DNA of 64,000 nucleotides from an uncultured Candidatus Saccharibacteria bacterium (GTDB lineage: Bacteria; Patescibacteriota; Minisyncoccia; Phycocordibacterales; SBAW01), in assembly GCA_964615415.1 (NCBI GenBank), contig CAZTNI010000001.1:176746-240745 (forward strand). Reading direction: 5' to 3'. The notes below the pieces were generated by a model that was not told the DNA's origin, made no database searches, and saw nothing but the letters and a program-made list of their open reading frames with translations. This document shows, piece by piece, positions 1,064-46,254 of this stretch (position 1 is the first letter of the stretch; every line of letters starts with the position of its first letter). Position numbers and translations under genes: made by a program.

Positions 1064-1137
1064 AAAAACACTAAATAAAGATAGGTCCTCGGTTCTCCTC
1101 GAAGACTCGGCCAGACCTCTCTTTCTTTAGTGTTTTT
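1064..1137 (+). repeat. palindromic repeat element, copy A (core GTCCTCGGTTCTCC ... GGCCAGAC)
   Basis: Outer inverted repeat AAAAACACTAAA (1064-1075) / TTTAGTGTTTTT (1126-1137). Core at 1085-1098. Begins 5 nt after the ndk stop. Same core at 27461 and 32518. Confidence 0.7.
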
Positions 1138-3099: not shown

Positions 3100-3711
3100 A
3101 TGGATCCGAAGCATGAACATTTGCAGTTAAAGTTGTGTGTCTCAGGTGCAGCGGAAACAGGACATTGTGGCGTTGATGCATACGACAAAGGCATTGCACT
3201 TGGCAAAGAAATTGCACGCGCAGGCGCCATTTTAGTTGAAGGTGCAACAACGGGTTTTCCGCTCTGGTCAGCTATGGGCGCAAAAGAGGCTGGGGGATTT
3301 GTAATAGGATTTTCGCCTGCATCTACCGAGAAAGAACATATCGAAACGTACAACCTTCCCGTTGAATACCATGACCTTATTGTCTACACGGGCTTTGGCT
3401 ACCCAGGGCGCGACCTCATTTTGACCCGCTCGGCAGATGCTATCTTTTTTGGATGTGGACGTATTGGTACTATCCACGAATTTACTATTGCGTTCGAAGA
3501 TAAAAAGCCAATTGGCATTTTAGAGGCCGACTGGGAGACTGATGAGCTTATTAAAGATATTGTCGAAAAAGGTCACCGTGCCAACGACCGTATCGTGTTT
3601 GATAATGACCCGAAGGCGCTCGTAGAACGGGTGATAGCGCTCGTAAAGGCAGACAAAATAAACCGCGCCTCCTTCCGCTTTGAAGCCGCAGGCGAAATAC
3701 CCGGGAACTAA
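3100..3711 (+). CDS. LOG/SLOG-family Rossmann-fold protein (TIGR00725-like)
   Basis: GGFVIGFSP ... FGYPGRDLILTRSADAIFFGCGRIGT pattern typical of the LOG/DprA-like SLOG fold. Confidence 0.5.
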   Translation: MDPKHEHLQLKLCVSGAAETGHCGVDAYDKGIALGKEIARAGAILVEGATTGFPLWSAMGAKEAGGFVIGFSPASTEKEHIETYNLPVEYHDLIVYTGFGYPGRDLILTRSADAIFFGCGRIGTIHEFTIAFEDKKPIGILEADWETDELIKDIVEKGHRANDRIVFDNDPKALVERVIALVKADKINRASFRFEAAGEIPGN

Positions 3712-3738
3712 AAAAGCCCCTCTTGAGGGGCTTTTTTA
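3712..3738. terminator. bidirectional intrinsic terminator
   Basis: Hairpin AGCCCCTC-TTGA-GGGGCT (3715-3732) flanked by an A-run and a T-run, between convergent genes. Confidence 0.7.
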
Positions 3739-3739
3739 G

Positions 3740-4090
3740 TTAGGCAACCTTTTTTGCTACTCGGGCGAAGCTTGCAGGAGATTTTTCTGCCATCTCTGCG
3801 AGCATTTTGCGGTTAAGCTTGATGCCTGCCTTGTTGAGGGCGCCGATGAATTTGCTGTAAGAAAGGGTTTCTGAAACACCTTCGAGACCTGCGTTAATGC
3901 GGACGTTCCAGAGGCGGCGGAAGTCATTCTTCTTGTCGCGGCGGTGTGCAAACGCATACTTACCAGCGTGGAAGATAGCCTCCTTTGCTGCGCGCTCCTT
4001 CTTTGAACGTGCAAAGCGGTAGCCTTTTACCTGTTTAAGGACATTACGACGGCGCTTTGCTGATATTTTTCCTCCTTTTACGCGTGCCAT
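3740..4090 (-). CDS. rplT: 50S ribosomal protein L20
   Basis: MARVKGG...RRRNVLKQVKGYRFARSK...AFAHRRDKKNDFRRLW. Classic infC-rpmI-rplT order. Confidence 0.95.
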   Translation of the reverse strand: MARVKGGKISAKRRRNVLKQVKGYRFARSKKERAAKEAIFHAGKYAFAHRRDKKNDFRRLWNVRINAGLEGVSETLSYSKFIGALNKAGIKLNRKMLAEMAEKSPASFARVAKKVA

Positions 4091-6825: not shown

Positions 6826-6975
6826 TGAAAAACCTCGTTTGACACAGTAAGGCTTGGGGAATATATTCAATCTATGCAGTCTATGCACAAGTGGTTCCGC
6901 GTCACCATTACTACCGACTTAGCCGGGGACACTTTTGCTGCGTAACTAATCTCAAGAAACCAAGCACCAAAACGA

Positions 6976-7005
6976 ATCCCCGGCGAAGCGCCGGGGATTT
7001 TTTGT
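6976..7005 (+). terminator. intrinsic terminator
   Basis: Hairpin ATCCCCGGCG-AAGC-GCCGGGGAT followed by TTTTTTG. Confidence 0.75.
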
Positions 7006-7103
7006 GGGGCTCTGATGCAAGAAACACTTTTTGCACCAGCGCCTGACAAGGGGAGAAGCTGGATGATCTTTTAAAACATCGCACAACCATAGGAGGATTC
7101 GCG

Positions 7104-18973: not shown

Positions 18974-18977
18974 AAAA

Positions 18978-19019
18978 TAAAAAAACCGCGGACACGAGTG
19001 TCCGCGGCGTTTGTTTTTG
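18978..19019. terminator. bidirectional intrinsic terminator
   Basis: Hairpin CCGCGGACAC-GA-GTGTCCGCGG with A- and T-runs. Confidence 0.75.
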
Positions 19020-23968: not shown

Positions 23969-24006
23969 AAAGAAAAAACCGCCAAATGGCGGCTTTTCTT
24001 TTTATG
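23969..24006 (-). terminator. intrinsic terminator of ssrA
   Basis: Hairpin CCGCCAAATGGCGG followed by a T-run on the minus strand, directly after the tmRNA 3' end. Confidence 0.75.
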
Positions 24007-24380
24007 TGGAAGTGGGCGGAGTTGAACCGCCGTGCAACACAAGTCCTCGTACACATCTACAGAAGATAGACTATCTTATTTTCTTGGACTCAATCGTAAG
24101 AGATAGACAGAATAAAATTGAGCTGCAGCTTCATAGTTTCAATTACTGAGCGAAGCGGTTCTCAGTAACTAGAGCCTGAAATATAACACTCGGTCTCCAT
24201 ACTCAGACACTCTGGAGCGAATGTGATTATGCGCGCGCTGTTGCGAACGATAGATCATTCACCGAGAAATACGGTGATTTAACTGATTTTGCAGTTATGG
24301 TTTGGCACATTTTTAAGAAGGTATGCCACTTCTCTCCTGCATGTAGGAAGATAATTGTATTGTCTAAGCCTGTCACTCCC
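24007..24380 (-). ncRNA. ssrA: transfer-messenger RNA (tmRNA, SsrA)
   Basis: Minus strand 5' GGGAGUG ... GUGUACGAGGACUUGUGUUGCACGGCGGUUCAACUCCGCCCACUUCCA 3'. T-arm GGCGG-UUCAACU-CCGCC identical to the E. coli tmRNA T-loop. Acceptor pairing GGGAGUG/CACUUCC with a G3:U70 wobble (Ala identity). CCA not encoded. Lies downstream of smpB on the same strand. Candidate tag ORF GCA (nt 89) ... ends FATARA-TAA at 24227-24229. Confidence 0.8.
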
Positions 24381-24559
24381 CGAAGTAGCACAAAAGATTT
24401 CCGGGCACTAAGTCGAGCGCGACGGCGCGAGACAGAGAAATTTCTTAGCAAAGAAATTTCGGTGACCGAGAATCTTTTGTGCTACATCGGGAAGGGCCTA
24501 GAGAATAAGTGTTCAAATGTGGCGGGGAACATATACGCGTTCCCCGCAGTATGGAAAGG

Positions 24560-24992: not shown

Positions 24993-25436
24993 TTATTCGT
25001 TTTTCAATGTCCTGCGCATTTCGCGCTCCGTGTCCCGCTTCTTTAAGACGGCACGTTTGTCGAATGCTTTCCGACCGCGCGCGGCTGCCACGCGCAGCTT
25101 TAATACATCTCCTTTATTATACACCGAAAGTGGCACTACTGTCAAGCCTTTTTGACCCTCATATTCGGCCAGTTTTTCTATCTCCTCCTTGGTGAGGAGT
25201 AGTTTGCGGCTGCGCTCTGGGTCGTAGTCGGTTGGCGTGTTTGCTGCCTGGTAGGGTGGCACCGACATGCCTACTATATATGCTTCGCCGCCGCGTACTA
25301 TTATATGCGCGCCGTCTAATTTTCCGTTCCCTCCACGCAGCGACTTTACTTCGAAGCCAAGGAGCTCTAAGCCCGCCTCGAATTCCTCGAGGACCTCGTA
25401 GTTAAGTCGCGCTTTTTTGTTCTCTATAAGAGACAT
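24993..25436 (-). CDS. smpB: SsrA-binding protein SmpB
   Basis: MSLIENKKARLNYEVLEEFEAGLELLGFEVKSLR ... typical SmpB N-terminus. Confidence 0.95.
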   Translation of the reverse strand: MSLIENKKARLNYEVLEEFEAGLELLGFEVKSLRGGNGKLDGAHIIVRGGEAYIVGMSVPPYQAANTPTDYDPERSRKLLLTKEEIEKLAEYEGQKGLTVVPLSVYNKGDVLKLRVAAARGRKAFDKRAVLKKRDTEREMRRTLKNE

Positions 25437-25464
25437 GCGCTCAGTATACCGCTATAGCACAAAA

Positions 25465-25473
25465 TGCTATACT
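25465..25473 (+). promoter_or_regulatory. extended -10 box TGCTATACT, 9 nt upstream of the ftsH ATG
   Basis: TGCTATACT-gcccctaca-ATG. Confidence 0.5.
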
Positions 25474-25482
25474 GCCCCTACA

Positions 25483-27435
25483 ATGCCAGAACAAAAAGAT
25501 ACCCAGGGTGGACCGGGGAACAAGCGCGGTCCTCGTAAACTGCCTCCTGTACCGAAGATGCCGCGTGGCGATTCCTTTTGGATTAACTTCGCTATGAGCG
25601 TCGTGCTCTTCTTGCTGCTTGCAGGGGCGTATACGTACTTTGTAGGTGCAGGGAAAGATACGCCGGAAGACATTCCTGTTTCGCAGCTTGCGACCGACAT
25701 TGTCGCAGGAAAGGTGACCACTATCGTTGTGGATGGCGACAACCTCGACATTACCTACGCGGACAAGACAGAAAAAACATCTAAAAAGGAGCCTGACACC
25801 GCGCTTACCGAAACACTCACTAACTATGGCGTATCGACACAAGCGCTCGGCAAAGTTGCCATCGACATTAAACGCCAAAGTTCGTGGCAGTTTTGGTTGA
25901 CCGCACTCGCTCCGTTTTTAGCACCGCTTCTCTTGATCGGATTCTTTATCTGGTACCTCTCGCGACAAGTGCGCGGCGCAGGCGTACAGGCATTCTCTTT
26001 CGGCCAGAGTAAGCCACGCTTAATCGACCCGAACGATGCGGGGCAGCGTGTCACGTTTAAAGATGTTGCAGGTGCAAAGGAAGCAAAAGTAGAATTGCTC
26101 GAAATCGTCGACTTCCTGCGTAATCCAAAGAAATTCCTCGACATTGGCGCGCGTATTCCGAAAGGTATTCTGTTGATGGGTGCGCCAGGTACGGGCAAGA
26201 CTTTGCTTGCGCGCGCAGTTGCGGGCGAGGCAGGTGTGCCGTTTTTCTCTATCTCAGGATCAGAATTCGTTGAGATGTTTGTGGGCGTTGGTGCATCCCG
26301 CGTGCGCGACCTCTTTTTAACTGCAAAGAAGGCGGCGCCAGCGATTATCTTCGTCGACGAAATTGATGCCGTTGGCCGCGTGCGTGGTACGGGTGTGGGC
26401 GGTGGTAACGATGAACGCGAACAAACTTTGAACCAGATTCTTGTCGAGATGGACGGCTTTGAGCCGAATGAAAAAGTTATCGTTATGGCGGCGACGAACC
26501 GTCCTGATGTCCTGGACCCCGCACTCCTTCGTCCGGGCCGCTTCGACCGTCGCGTGTTTATTGACCTTCCGGACCGTACGGACCGCCTTGAAATCCTTAC
26601 TATCCATGCACGCAAGAAGCCACTTGCAGAAGACGTTAACCTTGAGGTGATTGCAGAGCGCACGCCAGGTTTCTCTGGTGCCGACCTCTACTCCTTGATG
26701 AACGAAGGTGCGATTCTTGCGGCGCGCGAAAACCGCAAAACCGTTGCGCAGTTCGACCTCATCCGCTCTATTGAAAAAGTGATGCTCGGTCCGGAACGCC
26801 GCTCGCATGTCTTAAATAAAAAAGAGAAGGAAATTACTGCCTATCACGAAGCTGGCCACGCGCTTGTCGCGTCGGTGCTTCCATACGCAGATCCGGTACA
26901 TAAAATTTCTATCATCAGTCGTGGTCGCGCTGGCGGCTACACGCTAAAGCTTCCATTCGATGACCGTAAGCTCCAAAGTAAGCGTGAGTTCCTCGACGAT
27001 ATTGCAATGTCACTTGGTGGATACGTTGCAGAGCGTGAAGTCTTTGGCGATGTTACGACTGGACCATCAAACGACTTGCAAGTGTTGACCGCGCTTGCGC
27101 GTGACATGGTGACTCGTTACGGCATGTCGGAAAAAATGGGCACGGTAGCACTTACGGGTGATGGTGGTCGCGCCATGTTTGGTAGTGGTGTCGAAGGTAA
27201 AGAACACTCGGACAAAGTATCTGCAGAAATTGATAGTGAGGTAAAGCGCATTGTTGACGAGGCGTACGACAAAGCGACAAAGATTGTAAAAGACTACCGT
27301 CACGTGCTTGATGCTATCGCGAAGCGACTTGTTGAAGTAGAAAATATTGAACGCGAAGAATTTGAAACTATTCTTGTTGCGCACGGGATCCAGCCGAAAC
27401 GCAAACAAGACATAGAGCATCAGCCGATCGTATAG
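25483..27435 (+). CDS. ftsH: ATP-dependent zinc metalloprotease FtsH
   Basis: Two N-terminal TM segments. AAA Walker [24 protein letters not shown]. Second-region-of-homology motif. HEAGHALV zinc site. Confidence 0.95.
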
Positions 27436-27440
27436 ACTAC

Positions 27441-27525
27441 ATAAAACTCCTCCTGAAAAAGTCCTCGGTTCTCCCGTATCGGCTCGGAGCCTCTCGGGCC
27501 AGACTATTTTCATGAGGAGTTTTAT
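27441..27525 (+). repeat. palindromic repeat element, copy B
   Basis: Outer inverted repeat ATAAAACTCCTCCTGAAAAA / TTTTCATGAGGAGTTTTAT. Core GTCCTCGGTTCTCC at 27461-27474. GGCCAGAC at 27497-27504. Begins 6 nt after the ftsH stop. Confidence 0.7.
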
Positions 27526-27544: not shown

Positions 27545-27572
27545 GATCCCCCGGCCAAAAGGTCGGGGGATC
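27545..27572. terminator. intrinsic terminator
   Basis: Hairpin GATCCCCCGGCC-AAAAG-GTCGGGGGATC. Confidence 0.7.
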
Positions 27573-27576
27573 AGTG

Positions 27577-28251
27577 TTAACGAAGAGCGAGTTGGACAGC
27601 GTCCAGGTCGTGGAGGTTGCGCGGAGGATTCTCCGCGATCTCCAGGTAGAGGTAGCTTCCGGGGATTCCCGGGCCACTCCCTGGGTCGCCGATGGGGTCG
27701 CCGCGAACGACGACCACCAGGCGGCAGCCGGTGTCGGTGCTGGCGATCGCTGCGGGCGAACGGCCGGCGTTGTAGACGACGACCGGCAGCTCGAACTCCG
27801 CCGCAACAACCGATGCCATCTGGCCGCCACCGCTGTGGGCAGTCAGGAAGACATGGTAGCCGGGGTAGGTGTCAAGCACCTCCGCAACGAAGTCTGTTGC
27901 GTGTGGCGATGCACCTCCGTGCACGAGCCGTCGGACACCTGCCACAAGCAGGTCGCCCGCGCTGAGGTTGTCGATCGCCACGACCACGGTACGGGTCGTG
28001 CTGTTGACGAACGCTGCGGCATGGAAGGCCGAGCGGTCCACCTCGAGCGTCCGCTCGAAGCCGCTCGGGGAACCCGAAGGGCCGTCGACGGCGAGAACAA
28101 ACGGCAGGAACGACCTCGCGGTCGTCAGTCGAGCGTTCTCGCTCGTGAGCGAGAAGTAGGGGCCTGCGGACGTAACTCCGCAGGTGGTGCTGGCGAGCGC
28201 CGGAGTCGCGAGTGCGACCACGGCAATAAAAGCATAGAAAAGCTTGCGCAT
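27577..28251 (-). CDS. secreted alpha/beta-hydrolase (class 3 lipase-like), very GC-rich gene
   Basis: Signal peptide MRKLFYAFIAVVALATPALA. Nucleophile-elbow-like FLTAHSGGGQMAS. About 65% GC versus about 48% background. The overlapping plus-strand ORF is regarded as an artefact. Confidence 0.55.
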   Translation of the reverse strand: MRKLFYAFIAVVALATPALASTTCGVTSAGPYFSLTSENARLTTARSFLPFVLAVDGPSGSPSGFERTLEVDRSAFHAAAFVNSTTRTVVVAIDNLSAGDLLVAGVRRLVHGGASPHATDFVAEVLDTYPGYHVFLTAHSGGGQMASVVAAEFELPVVVYNAGRSPAAIASTDTGCRLVVVVRGDPIGDPGSGPGIPGSYLYLEIAENPPRNLHDLDAVQLALR

Positions 28252-30630: not shown

Positions 30631-30702
30631 TGGGCGCGGCAGGGATCGAACCTGCGACCAGTCGTGTATAAGACGACGGCTCTACCACTGAGCTACGCGC
30701 CC
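30631..30702 (-). tRNA. tRNA-Ile with anticodon UAU (reads AUA)
   Basis: Minus strand GGGCGCG-UA-GCUC-AGUGGUA-GAGC-C-GUCGU-CUUAUAC-ACGAC-UGGUC-GCAGG-UUCGAUC-CCUGC-CGCGCCC-A. All four stems are perfect. CCA not encoded. Confidence 0.85.
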
Positions 30703-30797: not shown

Positions 30798-33005
30798 TTA
30801 CTCAAAATGCATGGCTTCTCTGCGAGAGGAGACTGCTTCTTTTAAGAGAGGGTGTTTCGTAAGCGTTTCGTCGGACTTTATTAAGGCGAGCGCCTCGGTA
30901 CGCGCAGCTTCTACAAGTTTGAGGTTTTTAATCGCTTCCATGCCGATGTCCGAGATGCCCCACTGACTTCTGCCGGAAAGTTCTCCGGGGCCGCGCTGCT
31001 GTAGGTCCATCTCGGCGAGTTCGAATCCATTTTTTGCTTTTGTAAGTGCTTTGAGGCGTGCAATCGTTTTTTCTCCCTGTGTTTCCGGACAGACAAAACA
31101 ATACGCTTGGTGAGTGGAGCGTACGACGCGTCCGCGTAACTGGTGGAGTTGCGATAGGCCGAAGCGTTCGGCGCCTTCAATAAAAATCATCGTCGCGTTC
31201 GGCACGTTAACGCCGACTTCGACTACCGACGTTGCAACAAGAATATCTATCTCGTGGTTTGAAAAGCGCTCCATCACCGCGTCTTTTTCCGCAGGCTTCA
31301 TCTTGCTGTGAAGTATATCTATTTCGTAGTCTTGAAATACTTCTTTTTTAAGACGTTTAGCTTCAGCGGTAACAGACTTTGCCATCAGTGCAAACATCTT
31401 GTCTTTATCTGGCTCATCGATGCGCGGACAAATAACGTATGCTTGGCGGCCGGCCGCAAGCTCCTCGTGCATTTTTTTATACGCTTCCGTACGATCTTTC
31501 GTCTCGACAATCTCGGTAATGATCGGCTTTCTGCCCGGAGGCATCTGGTCAAGGAGTGTCAGGTCGAGGTCGCCGTAAAGGGTGAGCGCAAGTGTGCGCG
31601 GGATCGGTGTTGCGGTCATGGAAAGGAGGTGCGGCAGTTGCTCGTCTTTGCGCGCGAGCTTGCGACGTTGGTTAATACCGAAGCGGTGCTGTTCGTCTAT
31701 AACCACAAGTGCTAAATGTTTAAACTGCACCGACTTTTCGATAAGTGAATGCGTACCTATTACGACCGGAATCTCGCCATTCGCCACCCATTTTAAAAGT
31801 TGAGTGCGGGAAATATTAGTCGCTTCGTCCTTGCTGACTTTGGAAGGGAATTTAAAACAACCGCTTCCAGTAATAAGGCCTATATTAATTGGGAACTGTT
31901 CGAAGTATTTTATAAACGACTCGAAGTGCTGCTTCGCTAAAATTTCTGTCGGTGCCATGTATGCAACTTGTAAATTGCCAAAACTTTGGCCGCTCGGGCG
32001 GGTACGCACCGCAGCGTACGCAGCCGTGGCTGCGACGGCAGTCTTGCCTGAGCCTACGTCGCCTTCAAGGAGGCGCGACATAGGGTGACCGCTCCTCATG
32101 TCTTTAAGGATCGCGTTAATCGCTTTCATTTGCGCTGGTGTTGCAGTAAAGGGGAACTGCGAGATAAATTCCTCTACTATTTCTTGTGGTGCGTCGACAA
32201 CAAAACTTTTTTCATGCGCTTGCTCGGCGCGTTCTTTGCCGCGCGCAAGTTGGATATAAAATACCTCTTCAAATGCGAAACGCTTCCGCGCCGCTTCCGC
32301 ATCTTTTAGGTCTTGTGGAGTATGGATCCACACAAGTGCTGTTTTTAATGTGGGTAGGTTATATTTTTTTAAAATATCTGCAGGAATAGGATCTTCTGCG
32401 CTTTCAAGCACGCCCGCACCAAGTACACGCTCTATCGCGTGACGGAACCATAGTGAAGTAATCCCTCGTGTTTCTGGATATTGAGCGAAGATCCTCCCCG
32501 CAAGCTCCTCTGTAGAAGTCCTCGGTTCTCCGTCCTGTGGACGGCCAGACTTCTCCATAGAATCTTGCAGGGAGGATCTAAAGAGTCCGACATCAGTAGC
32601 AGAAATTTTTTCTAAGCGTGGGTTGGCGAGATACATTTTCTCGCCTTGGCCCGTCACTTTGCCCGTTGCTTTTACGAGTGTGCCATCTTGATACATCTTG
32701 GCGATGTATGGTTGGTTAAACCACATCAGTTTTATCCGACCGTTTTGGTCGCGTAGGAAGCCGGTCGTCGCAGGCACGCGGCTTTTCCATAACTTCTTAG
32801 CCTCAAGTTTTTCAAGCGTGCCGACAATAGACACTTCCGCTCCGGGTGTTAGTTCCGCGGTACTTTTTTCCTCGCCCGCCATCTCGTAGCGAAAGGGGAA
32901 GTGGTAGAGCAAATCCTGCGCAGTGGTAATCCCTAAATGCGAAAGCGCCGCCTTGTGTACCTCGCTCAGGCGGAAGAAAGCTGAAAGATTGCTTGACAAA
33001 TTCAT
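30798..33005 (-). CDS. recG: ATP-dependent DNA helicase RecG
   Basis: Walker A GDVGSGKT. DEQHRFG. MTATPIPRTLALTLYGDLD. Wedge and helicase domains. Confidence 0.95.
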   Translation of the reverse strand: MNLSSNLSAFFRLSEVHKAALSHLGITTAQDLLYHFPFRYEMAGEEKSTAELTPGAEVSIVGTLEKLEAKKLWKSRVPATTGFLRDQNGRIKLMWFNQPYIAKMYQDGTLVKATGKVTGQGEKMYLANPRLEKISATDVGLFRSSLQDSMEKSGRPQDGEPRTSTEELAGRIFAQYPETRGITSLWFRHAIERVLGAGVLESAEDPIPADILKKYNLPTLKTALVWIHTPQDLKDAEAARKRFAFEEVFYIQLARGKERAEQAHEKSFVVDAPQEIVEEFISQFPFTATPAQMKAINAILKDMRSGHPMSRLLEGDVGSGKTAVAATAAYAAVRTRPSGQSFGNLQVAYMAPTEILAKQHFESFIKYFEQFPINIGLITGSGCFKFPSKVSKDEATNISRTQLLKWVANGEIPVVIGTHSLIEKSVQFKHLALVVIDEQHRFGINQRRKLARKDEQLPHLLSMTATPIPRTLALTLYGDLDLTLLDQMPPGRKPIITEIVETKDRTEAYKKMHEELAAGRQAYVICPRIDEPDKDKMFALMAKSVTAEAKRLKKEVFQDYEIDILHSKMKPAEKDAVMERFSNHEIDILVATSVVEVGVNVPNATMIFIEGAERFGLSQLHQLRGRVVRSTHQAYCFVCPETQGEKTIARLKALTKAKNGFELAEMDLQQRGPGELSGRSQWGISDIGMEAIKNLKLVEAARTEALALIKSDETLTKHPLLKEAVSSRREAMHFE
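32489..32579 (+). repeat. palindromic repeat element, copy C, lying inside the recG coding sequence and translated in frame
   Basis: Outer inverted repeat AGATCCTCCCCGCAAG / CTTGCAGGGAGGATCT. Core GTCCTCGGTTCTCC at 32518-32531. GGCCAGAC at 32543-32550. On the recG strand it encodes RSSLQDSMEKSGRPQDGEPRTSTEELAGRIF. Confidence 0.7.
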
Positions 33006-41336: not shown

Positions 41337-41426
41337 TGGCGGAGAGGGAGGGATTCGAACCCTCGGAACCCTTTCGGGCTCAACAACTTAGCAGGTTGCT
41401 CCATTCGGCCGCTCTGGCACCTCTCC
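41337..41426 (-). tRNA. tRNA-Ser(GCU), type II
   Basis: Minus strand GGAGAGG-UG-CCA-...-GCAAC-CUGCUAA-GUUGU-(long variable arm)-GAGGG-UUCGAAU-CCCUC-CCUCUCC-G-CCA. G73 discriminator. CCA encoded. Confidence 0.85.
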
Positions 41427-43973: not shown

Positions 43974-44058
43974 GGAGAGATGGATGAGTGGTTTAAATCA
44001 ACAGTTTACTAAACTGTCGATCCGCAAGGATCCGTGGGTTCGAATCCCACTCTCTCCG
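43974..44058 (+). tRNA. Ser-like type II tRNA with an unusual anticodon loop UUACUAA (anticodon ACU)
   Basis: GGAGAGA-UG-GAU-GAGUGGUUUAA-AUC-A-ACAGU-UUACUAA-ACUGU-(16-nt variable arm GAUCC-GCAA-GGAUC)-GUGGG-UUCGAAU-CCCAC-UCUCUCC-G. All stems pair. G73 discriminator and 3-bp D-stem as in tRNA-Ser. Confidence 0.55.
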
Positions 44059-44670: not shown

Positions 44671-46254
44671 GTGCGCATGACCCAGGCAGAAGCACTGACT
44701 ATTTTAAAAACAGGGGCGAATGTTTTTTTAACCGGAGAACCGGGGAGCGGTAAGTCGCACACGGTTAATCAGTATGTTGCGTGGCTGCGTGCGCATGGGC
44801 TGCAACCCGCAATCACTGCTTCAACGGGTATCGCAGCAACGCATGTTGGCGGGTACACCATACACTCCTGGAGCGGCATCGGTATAAAAAAGAAGCTTAC
44901 CAACTATGACCTCGACCAAATAACGCAGAATAAGCGTATCTACGAACAAGTTGGTCGAGCAAAAATTTTAATTATCGACGAAGTCTCGATGCTCTCTGCA
45001 CAGACGCTCGATATGGTCGAGGCGGTGTGTCGAGCAGTTCGTCGCAAGGATGAGCCATTTGGCGGGCTGCAAGTTATCTTGGTTGGAGATTTTTTCCAAC
45101 TGCCGCCCGTTGTGAAGCGAGAAGAGAATGATGAGCAAGATTCGTTATCGCTCGAACCAGTGTCGCCGCAGTTCGCATTCGAGTCTGCTGCGTGGAGAAA
45201 ACTCTCTCCGCTCGTGTGCTATTTGTCGGAACAGCATCGCCAGGAAGACGCAACGTTTTTGGAATTTCTGACTGCTATCCGGCGTGGAAGTGTCGTTGAG
45301 GGTCATAAAGATTTGTTGCGTAAGCGGTATAGTCCGCGACCGAAAGGTGACATTACTCAGCTGTATTCGCACAATGCGGACGTGGATGCGCTCAATGATC
45401 GCGAGCTTGCTAAATTGTCGGACGCTTCTCGGGTCTTTCATATGGTGAGCCATGGGTCAGAAAAGTTAGTTGATGCTCTTAAGCGCGGCTGCCTCTCGCC
45501 GGAATCTCTGGTGCTTAAAGTTGGCGCGCGCGTCATGTTTACGAAAAATGATGTGCAAACGCATCGGTACGCAAACGGCACGCTTGGGGTTGTGGCCGAT
45601 TTCGTAAAAGAAACCGGACTACCTGTTGTTAAAACGAAGTCGGGAAAGAGTTTGATGGTTGAACCAGTAGAGTGGAGTTTAATCGACAACGGCAAAATTC
45701 TTGCGCGGATTACACAGCTACCGCTCCGACTTGCGTGGGCGATGACGGTGCATAAAAGCCAAGGCATGTCGCTCGATGCAGCGCATATGGACCTCTCGCA
45801 AACATTTGAATATGGGCAAGGGTATGTCGCTCTTTCGCGTGTGCGCACGTTAGAGGGACTTTCCATTGCGGGGCTTAATGACCGCGCGCTTCAAGTACAT
45901 CCAACTATTTTAGAAAAAGATGAACTATTTCGGGAACAGTCAGACGCTGCAGGCGAGGCATTTTCAAAATTATCTCCTGCCGATATAGAAAAAATGCAGA
46001 ATAATTTTATCGATGCTATGGGCGGAAGTAGAGAAGCAAAAGAGGTTGCGGTAGTAGAAACAAAGTCTAAGTTGGAAACCATGCGCGAGACGCATCAAAA
46101 TGCCTACCGCAAATGGAGCAAGGACGAGGAGGGTGACCTGATCCGCCGTTTTGAAGGCGGAGAGAAGCAGTCTGCTATTGCTAAGGCACTTGGACGGAAA
46201 CCGGGCGCTATCCGCTCTCGGCTCATCAAGCTCGGTTTGATTGAAGAGGACTAA
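44671..46254 (+). CDS. PIF1/RecD-family (AAA_30) DNA helicase with a C-terminal HTH
   Basis: Walker A TGEPGSGKSH. Walker B ILIIDEVSM. VLVGDFFQLPPV. C-terminal KQSAIAKALGRKPGAIRSRLIKLG. Confidence 0.8.
   Translation: MRMTQAEALTILKTGANVFLTGEPGSGKSHTVNQYVAWLRAHGLQPAITASTGIAATHVGGYTIHSWSGIGIKKKLTNYDLDQITQNKRIYEQVGRAKILIIDEVSMLSAQTLDMVEAVCRAVRRKDEPFGGLQVILVGDFFQLPPVVKREENDEQDSLSLEPVSPQFAFESAAWRKLSPLVCYLSEQHRQEDATFLEFLTAIRRGSVVEGHKDLLRKRYSPRPKGDITQLYSHNADVDALNDRELAKLSDASRVFHMVSHGSEKLVDALKRGCLSPESLVLKVGARVMFTKNDVQTHRYANGTLGVVADFVKETGLPVVKTKSGKSLMVEPVEWSLIDNGKILARITQLPLRLAWAMTVHKSQGMSLDAAHMDLSQTFEYGQGYVALSRVRTLEGLSIAGLNDRALQVHPTILEKDELFREQSDAAGEAFSKLSPADIEKMQNNFIDAMGGSREAKEVAVVETKSKLETMRETHQNAYRKWSKDEEGDLIRRFEGGEKQSAIAKALGRKPGAIRSRLIKLGLIEED

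Follow-up and report, generated by a model that had tools for sequence, protein, structure and literature searches.

The window analyzed here, a stretch of 64,000 nucleotides of DNA, contains three copies of a short palindromic element, designated A, B, and C, which have the arrangement GTCCTCGGTTCTCC-(hairpin)-GGCCAGAC in common and are each enclosed by a stem of their own of 17–30 bp. Copy A (1064–1137, + strand), which is located between genes, begins 5 nt past the stop codon of ndk (478–1059, + strand; stop ending at 1059); its center (1085–1116) reads GTCCTCGGTTCTCC, then TCGAAGACTC, then GGCCAGAC. Copy B (27441–27525, + strand), likewise intergenic, starts 6 nt after the stop codon of ftsH (25417–27435, + strand, start codon uncertain), and in its center (27461–27504) a variable hairpin of 22 nt separates the left core from the right core. 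Copy C (32489–32579, + strand; center 32518–32550, with a hairpin of 11 nt) lies within recG (30798–33005, − strand), a 735-amino acid ORF, with its core antisense to the gene. The first-pass annotation of this DNA had described three copies with shared blocks, outer inverted repeats that are complementary within each copy but differ between copies, and the placement of A and B 5–6 nt past the ndk and ftsH stops. All of this was borne out at the same coordinates; the location of copy C inside recG had been missed.

The block GTCCTCGGTTCTCC was found as an exact match three times in the window, on the + strand each time (1085–1098, 27461–27474, and 32518–32531), and the composite pattern GGTTCTCC-N(4–34)-GGCCAG occurred three times compared with 0.01 occurrences expected from shuffled sequences. 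The outer inverted repeat of copy A comprises 12 bp plus 5 bp with no mismatch, and those of copies B and C contain one mismatch per copy. Fold z scores relative to shuffles lay between −4.8 and −7.9 for the three copies on either strand. A covariance model (R1) built from 118 copies matched the window only at copies A (58.9 bits, E = 4e-13), B (72.4 bits, E = 8.5e-17), and C (58.0 bits), all with E ≤ 4e-13, and the next match had E = 0.13. A core match with two mismatches at 44734–44747, within P-loop coding sequence, was rejected as a chance occurrence.

Several other features were recorded in the window. Downstream of copy B lies a GC-rich hairpin at 27545–27572 (GATCCCCCGGCC-AAAA-GGTCGGGGGATC), followed on the minus strand by a T-rich tail. 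It resembles a terminator serving the convergent ORF at 27577–28251, and copy B is thus situated between the ftsH stop and this hairpin. Approximately 195 nt of non-coding DNA (1140–1334) extend from copy A to the next ORF; this segment had no Rfam match and contains local hairpins (GGATTACACC-GTG-GTGTAGTCC; GGGACTT…) and a TGgTATACT box. The ndk product (478–1059) is 193 amino acids long and matched the Pfam NDK model in two stretches, which implies that ~40–45 residues are inserted internally compared with canonical NDK; the element itself is not present there. Ordinary hairpins with A-tract and T-tract flanks but no core, resembling bidirectional terminators, were seen at 3706–3741, 6963–7011, and 18975–19018. 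At the Rfam gathering score, a tmRNA gene (24004–24380, − strand) and tRNA genes (30631–30702, − strand; 41340–41426, − strand; 43974–44058, + strand) were identified.

Anatomy of the element

In the consensus of the collected copies, the outermost layer is formed by copy-specific arms with a median of 22–26 Watson–Crick pairs. Next inward lies a semi-conserved internal loop, whose commonest subtype is TTTTC-TCA-G ... C-ATTC-GAAAA. The core follows, with a helix of gGUC/GACc, a CUC bulge facing a single A, a GG/CC helix, and a UUCU bulge; innermost, a CC/GG helix closes a variable apical hairpin of 10–34 nt. Total palindrome length ranges from ~74 to 125 nt, with medians of 91–99 nt. In the alignment of 118 copies, the invariant columns are 22 core positions and the arms have no consensus. 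These copies were gathered by means of the exact core, so that core invariance in this alignment is a matter of ascertainment, and the orthologous copies among them are non-independent. A less biased sample was provided by 13 further copies located within the collected loci, six of which carried only 1–2 core changes. Such changes fell mostly in the UUCU bulge, and in two copies the paired positions C48–G83 had changed jointly to G–C, a compensatory swap. A mini subfamily with the form GTCCTCGG-(8–9 nt)-CCAGAC (L045:4743–4834, L026:504–595, L018:3042–3133, and L018:1121–1209) was also found; it has neither the UUCU bulge nor the CC/GG helix and apical hairpin, and keeps the long arms. A K-turn reading of the core bulges was rejected, as there are no tandem G·A pairs.

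The covariation that the first-pass annotation had suspected from three copies, and proposed to test with a covariance model, was clearly present in the collected copies: all 20 arm pairs (20/20) vary on both sides, and the arms scored 0.625 compared with 0.139 in shuffles and at most 0.19 when partners were slid relative to each other. Overall, 85.7% of arm cells were paired, and the median arm score was 33 for true pairs versus 4 for re-paired arms. G·U accounted for only ~1.6% of arm cells. Among distal-arm mismatches read on the core strand, 72 were A·C and 39 G·T (counts that ignore shared ancestry), with the same trend in sense and antisense hosts, which hints that it is the anti-core strand that folds. 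On the mRNA strand, 29 G·U and 40 A·C mismatches were counted, i.e. there was no wobble enrichment, and an mRNA-structure reading was rejected on this basis.

Distribution among genomes and host genes

A search for the core in relatives, as the first-pass annotation had suggested, uncovered a large and real family. The exact core with its spacing was recovered from at least 113 loci in at least 83 assemblies, nearly all of which are labelled Parcubacteria-group or Patescibacteria; lineage labels among the matches listed include Nomurabacteria, Adlerbacteria, Kaiserbacteria, Ryanbacteria, Vogelbacteria, Paceibacterota, and Minisyncoccia. Up to six loci were recovered from one assembly, compared with three copies in the 64-kb window. 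Host genes in records labelled "uncultured Saccharibacteria" align closely with Nomurabacteria genes, and this label is therefore unreliable. One locus labelled Burkholderiales (L053) is probably mis-binned, judging from its UvrD sequence, which aligns closely with the Parcubacteria copies, and a match labelled Sedimentisphaerales (L014), which has no arms, is probably due to chance. An exact-pattern scan of viral contigs returned no matches. Searches of Rfam, with the window at gathering score and each copy up to E = 10, returned nothing relevant, only generic miRNA-like hairpins. A literature search found no description of the sequence or of palindromic elements, MITEs, or RPEs in CPR/Patescibacteria.

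Between 65 and 80% of copies are located inside long ORFs. For 97 of 120 copies, a frame without stops runs through the whole copy over at least 450 nt, and in many cases over more than 2 kb; under a stricter test, in which the ORF had to be at least 600 nt long and reach at least 90 nt beyond the copy on each side, 77 of 118 copies still lay in ORFs, 54 in sense and 23 in antisense orientation and in all three phases. The hosts are unrelated housekeeping genes, including recG, ligA (in the zinc-finger loop), uvrD (at two sites), uvrB, tgt, mnmA, lepA, recJ, argS, and tsaD, among others. For RecG, LigA, Tgt, MnmA, and LepA, both orientations were observed at the same protein site, and several frames as well. 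Out of 6 frames, the core plus hairpin has 5.6 without a stop codon in genic copies and 5.25 in intergenic ones; through whole genic copies, 3.58 of 6 frames are open, compared with 1.71 in shuffles. As far as reading frames can tell, this argues for translation rather than excision or bypass of the element, and detection of peptides such as SMEKSGRPQDGEPRTSTEE would establish that it is translated. Like copies A and B, 19 of 36 intergenic copies are situated no more than 25 nt from a gene stop codon. The GC content of the distal arms was 0.49 in genic and 0.29 in intergenic copies, whereas that of the loci was similar.

Two contigs bear on how the element behaves in assemblies. In a 519-nt contig (L105), a left arm of the LigA type and a right arm of the intergenic type meet across the core, which reflects either recombination or a chimeric assembly; a second contig, which encodes an identical NDK, ends within the core of copy A (L119, 1183–1235). 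The repeat thus breaks or mis-joins assemblies. No near-identical pair of filled and empty strains was obtained, and the sole other ndk contig stops inside the element.

Presence and absence in RecG and LepA

Copy C is in frame in recG and adds ~19–30 residues to a disordered loop, with the translation RSSLQDSMEKSGRPQDGEPRTSTEELAGRI at RecG residues about 143–172. In the AlphaFold model of the window RecG, residues 135–169 are coil with pLDDT below 50, just past the strands of the wedge domain. The closest RecG relative, P0002 (83% identity), is empty at this site. The arm on the recG-downstream side of copy C (32489–32517, − strand; …GAGGAGCTTGCGGGGAGGATCTTC, encoding EELAGRIF) belongs to the native coding sequence of recG (STEELAGRI) and aligns collinearly with GGEEIEPGKL in P0002 and with its native EEIEPGKLF. 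The arm on the recG-upstream side (32551–32579, − strand), encoding RSSLQDSME, repeats the native arm in reverse complement and is missing from the empty orthologue. The net gain is 54–57 nt, corresponding to the upstream arm and the center, compared with 91 nt for the whole palindrome.

Across RecG orthologues at 69–83% identity, one and the same linker is empty, filled in sense, filled in antisense (in three frames), or decayed. In a census of this linker, ~32 sequences were empty, ~28 carried an intact element (8 sense and 20 antisense), and the rest had longer inserts, apparently decayed elements. In P0007, P0081, P0013, and P0010, the conserved native D/N-L-F-A codons are covered by the downstream arm or form its end, and its reverse complement makes up the upstream arm (GCAAAAAGATC and similar; "EQK" in translation). 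Among RecG linkers, 18 of the 28 filled ones contained "xQK", the reverse complement of the LFA codons, compared with none of 32 empty ones. In P0009, one arm duplicates the native DLFA codons directly, in diverged form. The linker of this protein (locus L120) reads DSFV-K-DLFA, with an inverted copy, the core, a direct copy, and the native sequence in that order, and resembles the product of an inverted triplication. By length accounting, the window copy is more consistent with duplication, and P0007 and P0081 with a loss of native linker.

LepA shows a presence/absence pattern like that of RecG, in a linker of variable length. In three genomes whose LepA is 78% identical to the query, elements occupy differing linker positions and have unrelated distal arms. 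One arm of the L118 LepA copy encodes AEKSL, equivalent to the native STEKSL of empty orthologues; in some other LepA copies, both arms look foreign. Within a single genome, the contrast between center and arms was seen in an Adlerbacteria assembly, whose six copies share a near-identical, genome-specific 34-nt apical hairpin and have unrelated arms of ~22–28 bp that are perfect or near-perfect.

A scenario that the first-pass annotation had itself raised against a functional family, namely that the stems are gene-specific terminators abutting a shared oligomer, is excluded, because the same architecture occurs inside coding sequence and because the empty orthologue has no hairpin. One arm is nonetheless derived from flanking sequence that was already present.

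A second element with the same architecture

A second element was identified at 24376–24494 (+ strand), in the intergenic gap beside the 5′ end of the tmRNA gene. Its 33-nt arms are 85% complementary, its fold has a z score of −8.2, and its center consists of two conserved hairpins (…GACAGAGAAATTTC…GAAATTTCGGTGACCGAGAAT). Homologous centers, each with arms of its own, were found in frame in UvrD linkers, twice in L095 and in L035. With this second family of the same architecture, the phenomenon is one of a class rather than of a single family.

At UvrD site 2 of L023 (2407–2586), an in-frame hairpin of a third kind was noted, whose center differs and whose arms are AAAAAGGGGTTGGTAGT / ACTACCAACCCCTTTTT. 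The same UvrD contains an insertion of ~360 residues (alignment columns about 330–690) that is missing from the other six aligned UvrD sequences; from its termini, beginning with CLIKGTKITMAD and ending with VTHNC, it may be an intein.

Discussion

The family is real and widespread and has apparently not been described before. We consider it probable, at about 0.7, that copies A, B, and C belong to a dispersed, non-autonomous selfish DNA element of Parcubacteria whose stem is templated by the flanking sequence. The "MITE- or RPE-like selfish palindrome" that the first-pass annotation offered as an alternative fits this reading; the covariation on which its structured-RNA reading was based stood up, and the RNA reading itself was not supported. 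Since one arm is native gene sequence, the covariation is better explained by DNA-level copying of one arm from the other. Selection for pairing could in principle yield the same pattern in the arms.

In the mechanism that we propose, the mobile unit would be a short asymmetric hairpin core of roughly 35–60 nt, comprising the GUC/GAC and GG/CC helices, the invariant CUC/UUCU/A bulges, the variable apical hairpin, and a few semi-conserved flanking bases. It would insert anywhere in a gene-dense genome and survive where it is tolerated, i.e. in frame and in either orientation within housekeeping-protein loops that are disordered, at the extreme 3′ ends of genes, and in intergenic DNA. Its stop-free reading in nearly all frames would help survival inside genes. 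The long copy-specific stem would not be carried by the element. One arm would be local host sequence. At insertion or shortly thereafter, DNA synthesis by fold-back or template switching, with the core hairpin as its pivot, would produce the reverse complement of that sequence as the second arm, and the same process would later maintain complementarity. The inverted arm may be added at insertion, as lengths suggest for the window copy, or overwrite the flank, as they suggest for P0007 and P0081. Inversion of the core by recombination or by a hairpin "flip-flop" between the arms, or else independent hits, would give rise to both orientations, and repeated hits followed by decay would turn permissive loops into graveyards of elements. 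The invariant core would serve as the recognition site of a putative trans-acting protein or as the trigger of fold-back. Template switching is known to create and maintain perfect hairpins (PMC8794818, PMC5453318), and quasi-palindrome correction has been described (PMC3820800). Such events resemble what is proposed here in that a single step turns local sequence into perfect inverted repeats and in that compensatory substitution is mimicked without selection on RNA; they differ in being sporadic and at arbitrary sites, whereas here they would be tied to a conserved mobile core in every copy.

That the 22-nt core is nearly invariant over many lineages would not be expected of simple "junk" and points to a possible function, and we argue from the conservation of an asymmetric core that something reads it. 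One alternative is that the element is a DNA site used by the host, in which the folded single-stranded core is recognized by a conserved Parcubacteria protein (candidates would be a recombinase, an HUH nuclease, or a replication or DNA-uptake factor) and the copies are domesticated and kept by selection. The near-invariant core with its fixed bulges in at least 83 assemblies, the joint C48–G83 change, and the preference for G·T on the anti-core strand whatever the direction of the host gene, as if one DNA strand folds, are all in keeping with it. The positions of the copies, on the other hand, follow no logic: the protein loops that they occupy are arbitrary, and close relatives often have a decayed copy or none. 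Density is low, at three copies per 64 kb, and no gene emerged as a partner. This reading is compatible with that of selfish DNA, since recognition of the core is required of a mobile element too; we regard host use as unlikely. A DNA-uptake sequence was considered separately and is likewise unlikely, with its low density and with long arms that such a sequence does not need.

A structured RNA, such as a 3′-UTR element, terminator, mRNA stabilizer, ribozyme, or small RNA shaped by RNA-level compensatory evolution, is suggested by the start of A and B just past stop codons, by the intergenic copies that likewise lie close to stops, and by the very stable predicted folds with strong covariation. 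It is made quite improbable, however, by the location of most copies in ORFs and in both orientations at the same protein site, the rarity of G·U in the arms and its lack of enrichment on the mRNA strand, the absence of any Rfam match up to E = 10, and the finding that one arm is native coding sequence; a terminator scan made no call of the whole element. Hammerhead, twister, pistol, and HDV-like ribozymes were rejected by eye and with Rfam.

Small size, dispersal, palindromic form, and the lack of coding capacity of its own would also suit a conventional MITE, that is, a deletion derivative of an insertion sequence that the transposase of that sequence mobilizes by way of shared terminal inverted repeats and that leaves target-site duplications, and 5–7-nt direct repeats flanked 11 copies, compared with about 2 expected. 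Most copies, however, have direct repeats of 0–3 nt, as in controls, with no consistent target-site duplication, and it is the center alone that is conserved, while the terminal arms differ between copies and one of them is host-derived. Neither a transposase, nor a longer parent element, nor an orphan half-site was found in 0.89 Mb of loci, and a conventional MITE is highly improbable. Unrelated hairpins that share an oligomer by chance, or an assembly artefact as the contigs broken or joined at the core (L119, L105) might suggest, can be dismissed as negligible given the 0.01 window matches expected, the independent loci from many studies and assemblers, and the presence of the element within intact long ORFs.

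The selfish element with a flank-templated stem is best compared with the protein-coding palindromic repeats RPE-1 to RPE-10 of Rickettsia and their analogues in Wolbachia and Methanocaldococcus jannaschii, as described by Ogata 2000/2002/2005 and Suyama 2005 (cited in PMC2996958) and in the review PMC10969869. Like RPEs, the copies described here are dispersed palindromes of ~100 bp, present many times in small reduced genomes, both in intergenic DNA and in frame in unrelated housekeeping genes; the ORF is preserved, the site is a non-structured protein segment (as in the RecG model and the RecG and LepA linkers), and the element has no transposase of its own. RPE copies align to a family consensus over their full length and have a conserved peptide in each family. 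Here, by contrast, the split 22-nt core alone is conserved, with neither a full-length consensus nor a conserved peptide; the element is read in all six frames, and its arms are specific to the locus and consist at least in part of host flank. The host lineage is also a different one, with no sequence relation known. The element thus works like a selfish coding palindrome of the RPE type, yet lacks the full-length or terminal conservation by which RPEs and MITEs are defined, and what distinguishes it from both is an invariant center combined with flank-templated arms.

Other systems share single features. MITEs, REPs, and BIMEs are short, non-autonomous palindromic repeats as well, and in REPs the folded single strand is recognized by an HUH Y1 transposase (RAYT). 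MITEs, however, have shared terminal repeats and target-site duplications, neither of which is seen here, and REPs are extragenic, 20–40 nt long, clustered, and marked by a conserved GTAG, whereas the present element is mostly intragenic and has no GTAG head. By analogy only, integron attC sites combine a conserved structure, extrahelical bases, and a variable stem with recognition of one strand; they conserve the outer core sites rather than the center and mark cassette boundaries, and no integrase is linked to the present element. Parvovirus and AAV termini, again by analogy only, have an asymmetric flip/flop hairpin tip that occurs in two orientations between identical arms; these inverted terminal repeats are genome ends, and no Rep protein is linked to the element here. 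PARCELs, too, are coding palindromic repeats that have spread among reduced-genome microbes, but they are tandem repeats of 25 residues with a conserved amphipathic peptide in surface proteins, compared with single insertions, a non-conserved peptide, and housekeeping-enzyme hosts in the present case.

More tentatively, and with the odds somewhat against it, the elements may represent a new class of mobile element, in which a core of ~35–60 nt integrates, fold-back turns ~25 nt of flank into a stem, there are no fixed ends, and the core is read by a putative CPR-specific protein; with at least two families, such a class would add loops of 20–35 residues to essential enzymes. The invariant asymmetric core offers a handle for finding a putative DNA-hairpin-recognizing enzyme or a transposase-free, copy-choice mode of spread. 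In practical terms, the elements account for recurrent odd insertions in the annotation of Parcubacteria housekeeping proteins and for contig breaks and chimeric joins in metagenome assemblies, and they provide natural presence/absence markers for strain tracking. That textbook-like compensatory covariation can come from DNA-level templating bears on every covariation-based RNA screen. For the biology of these organisms, selfish DNA within coding genes, a rare occurrence known from Rickettsia, Wolbachia, and M. jannaschii, is extended to a bacterial radiation that is among the largest uncultivated ones, and even ultra-small genomes are not free of selfish DNA.
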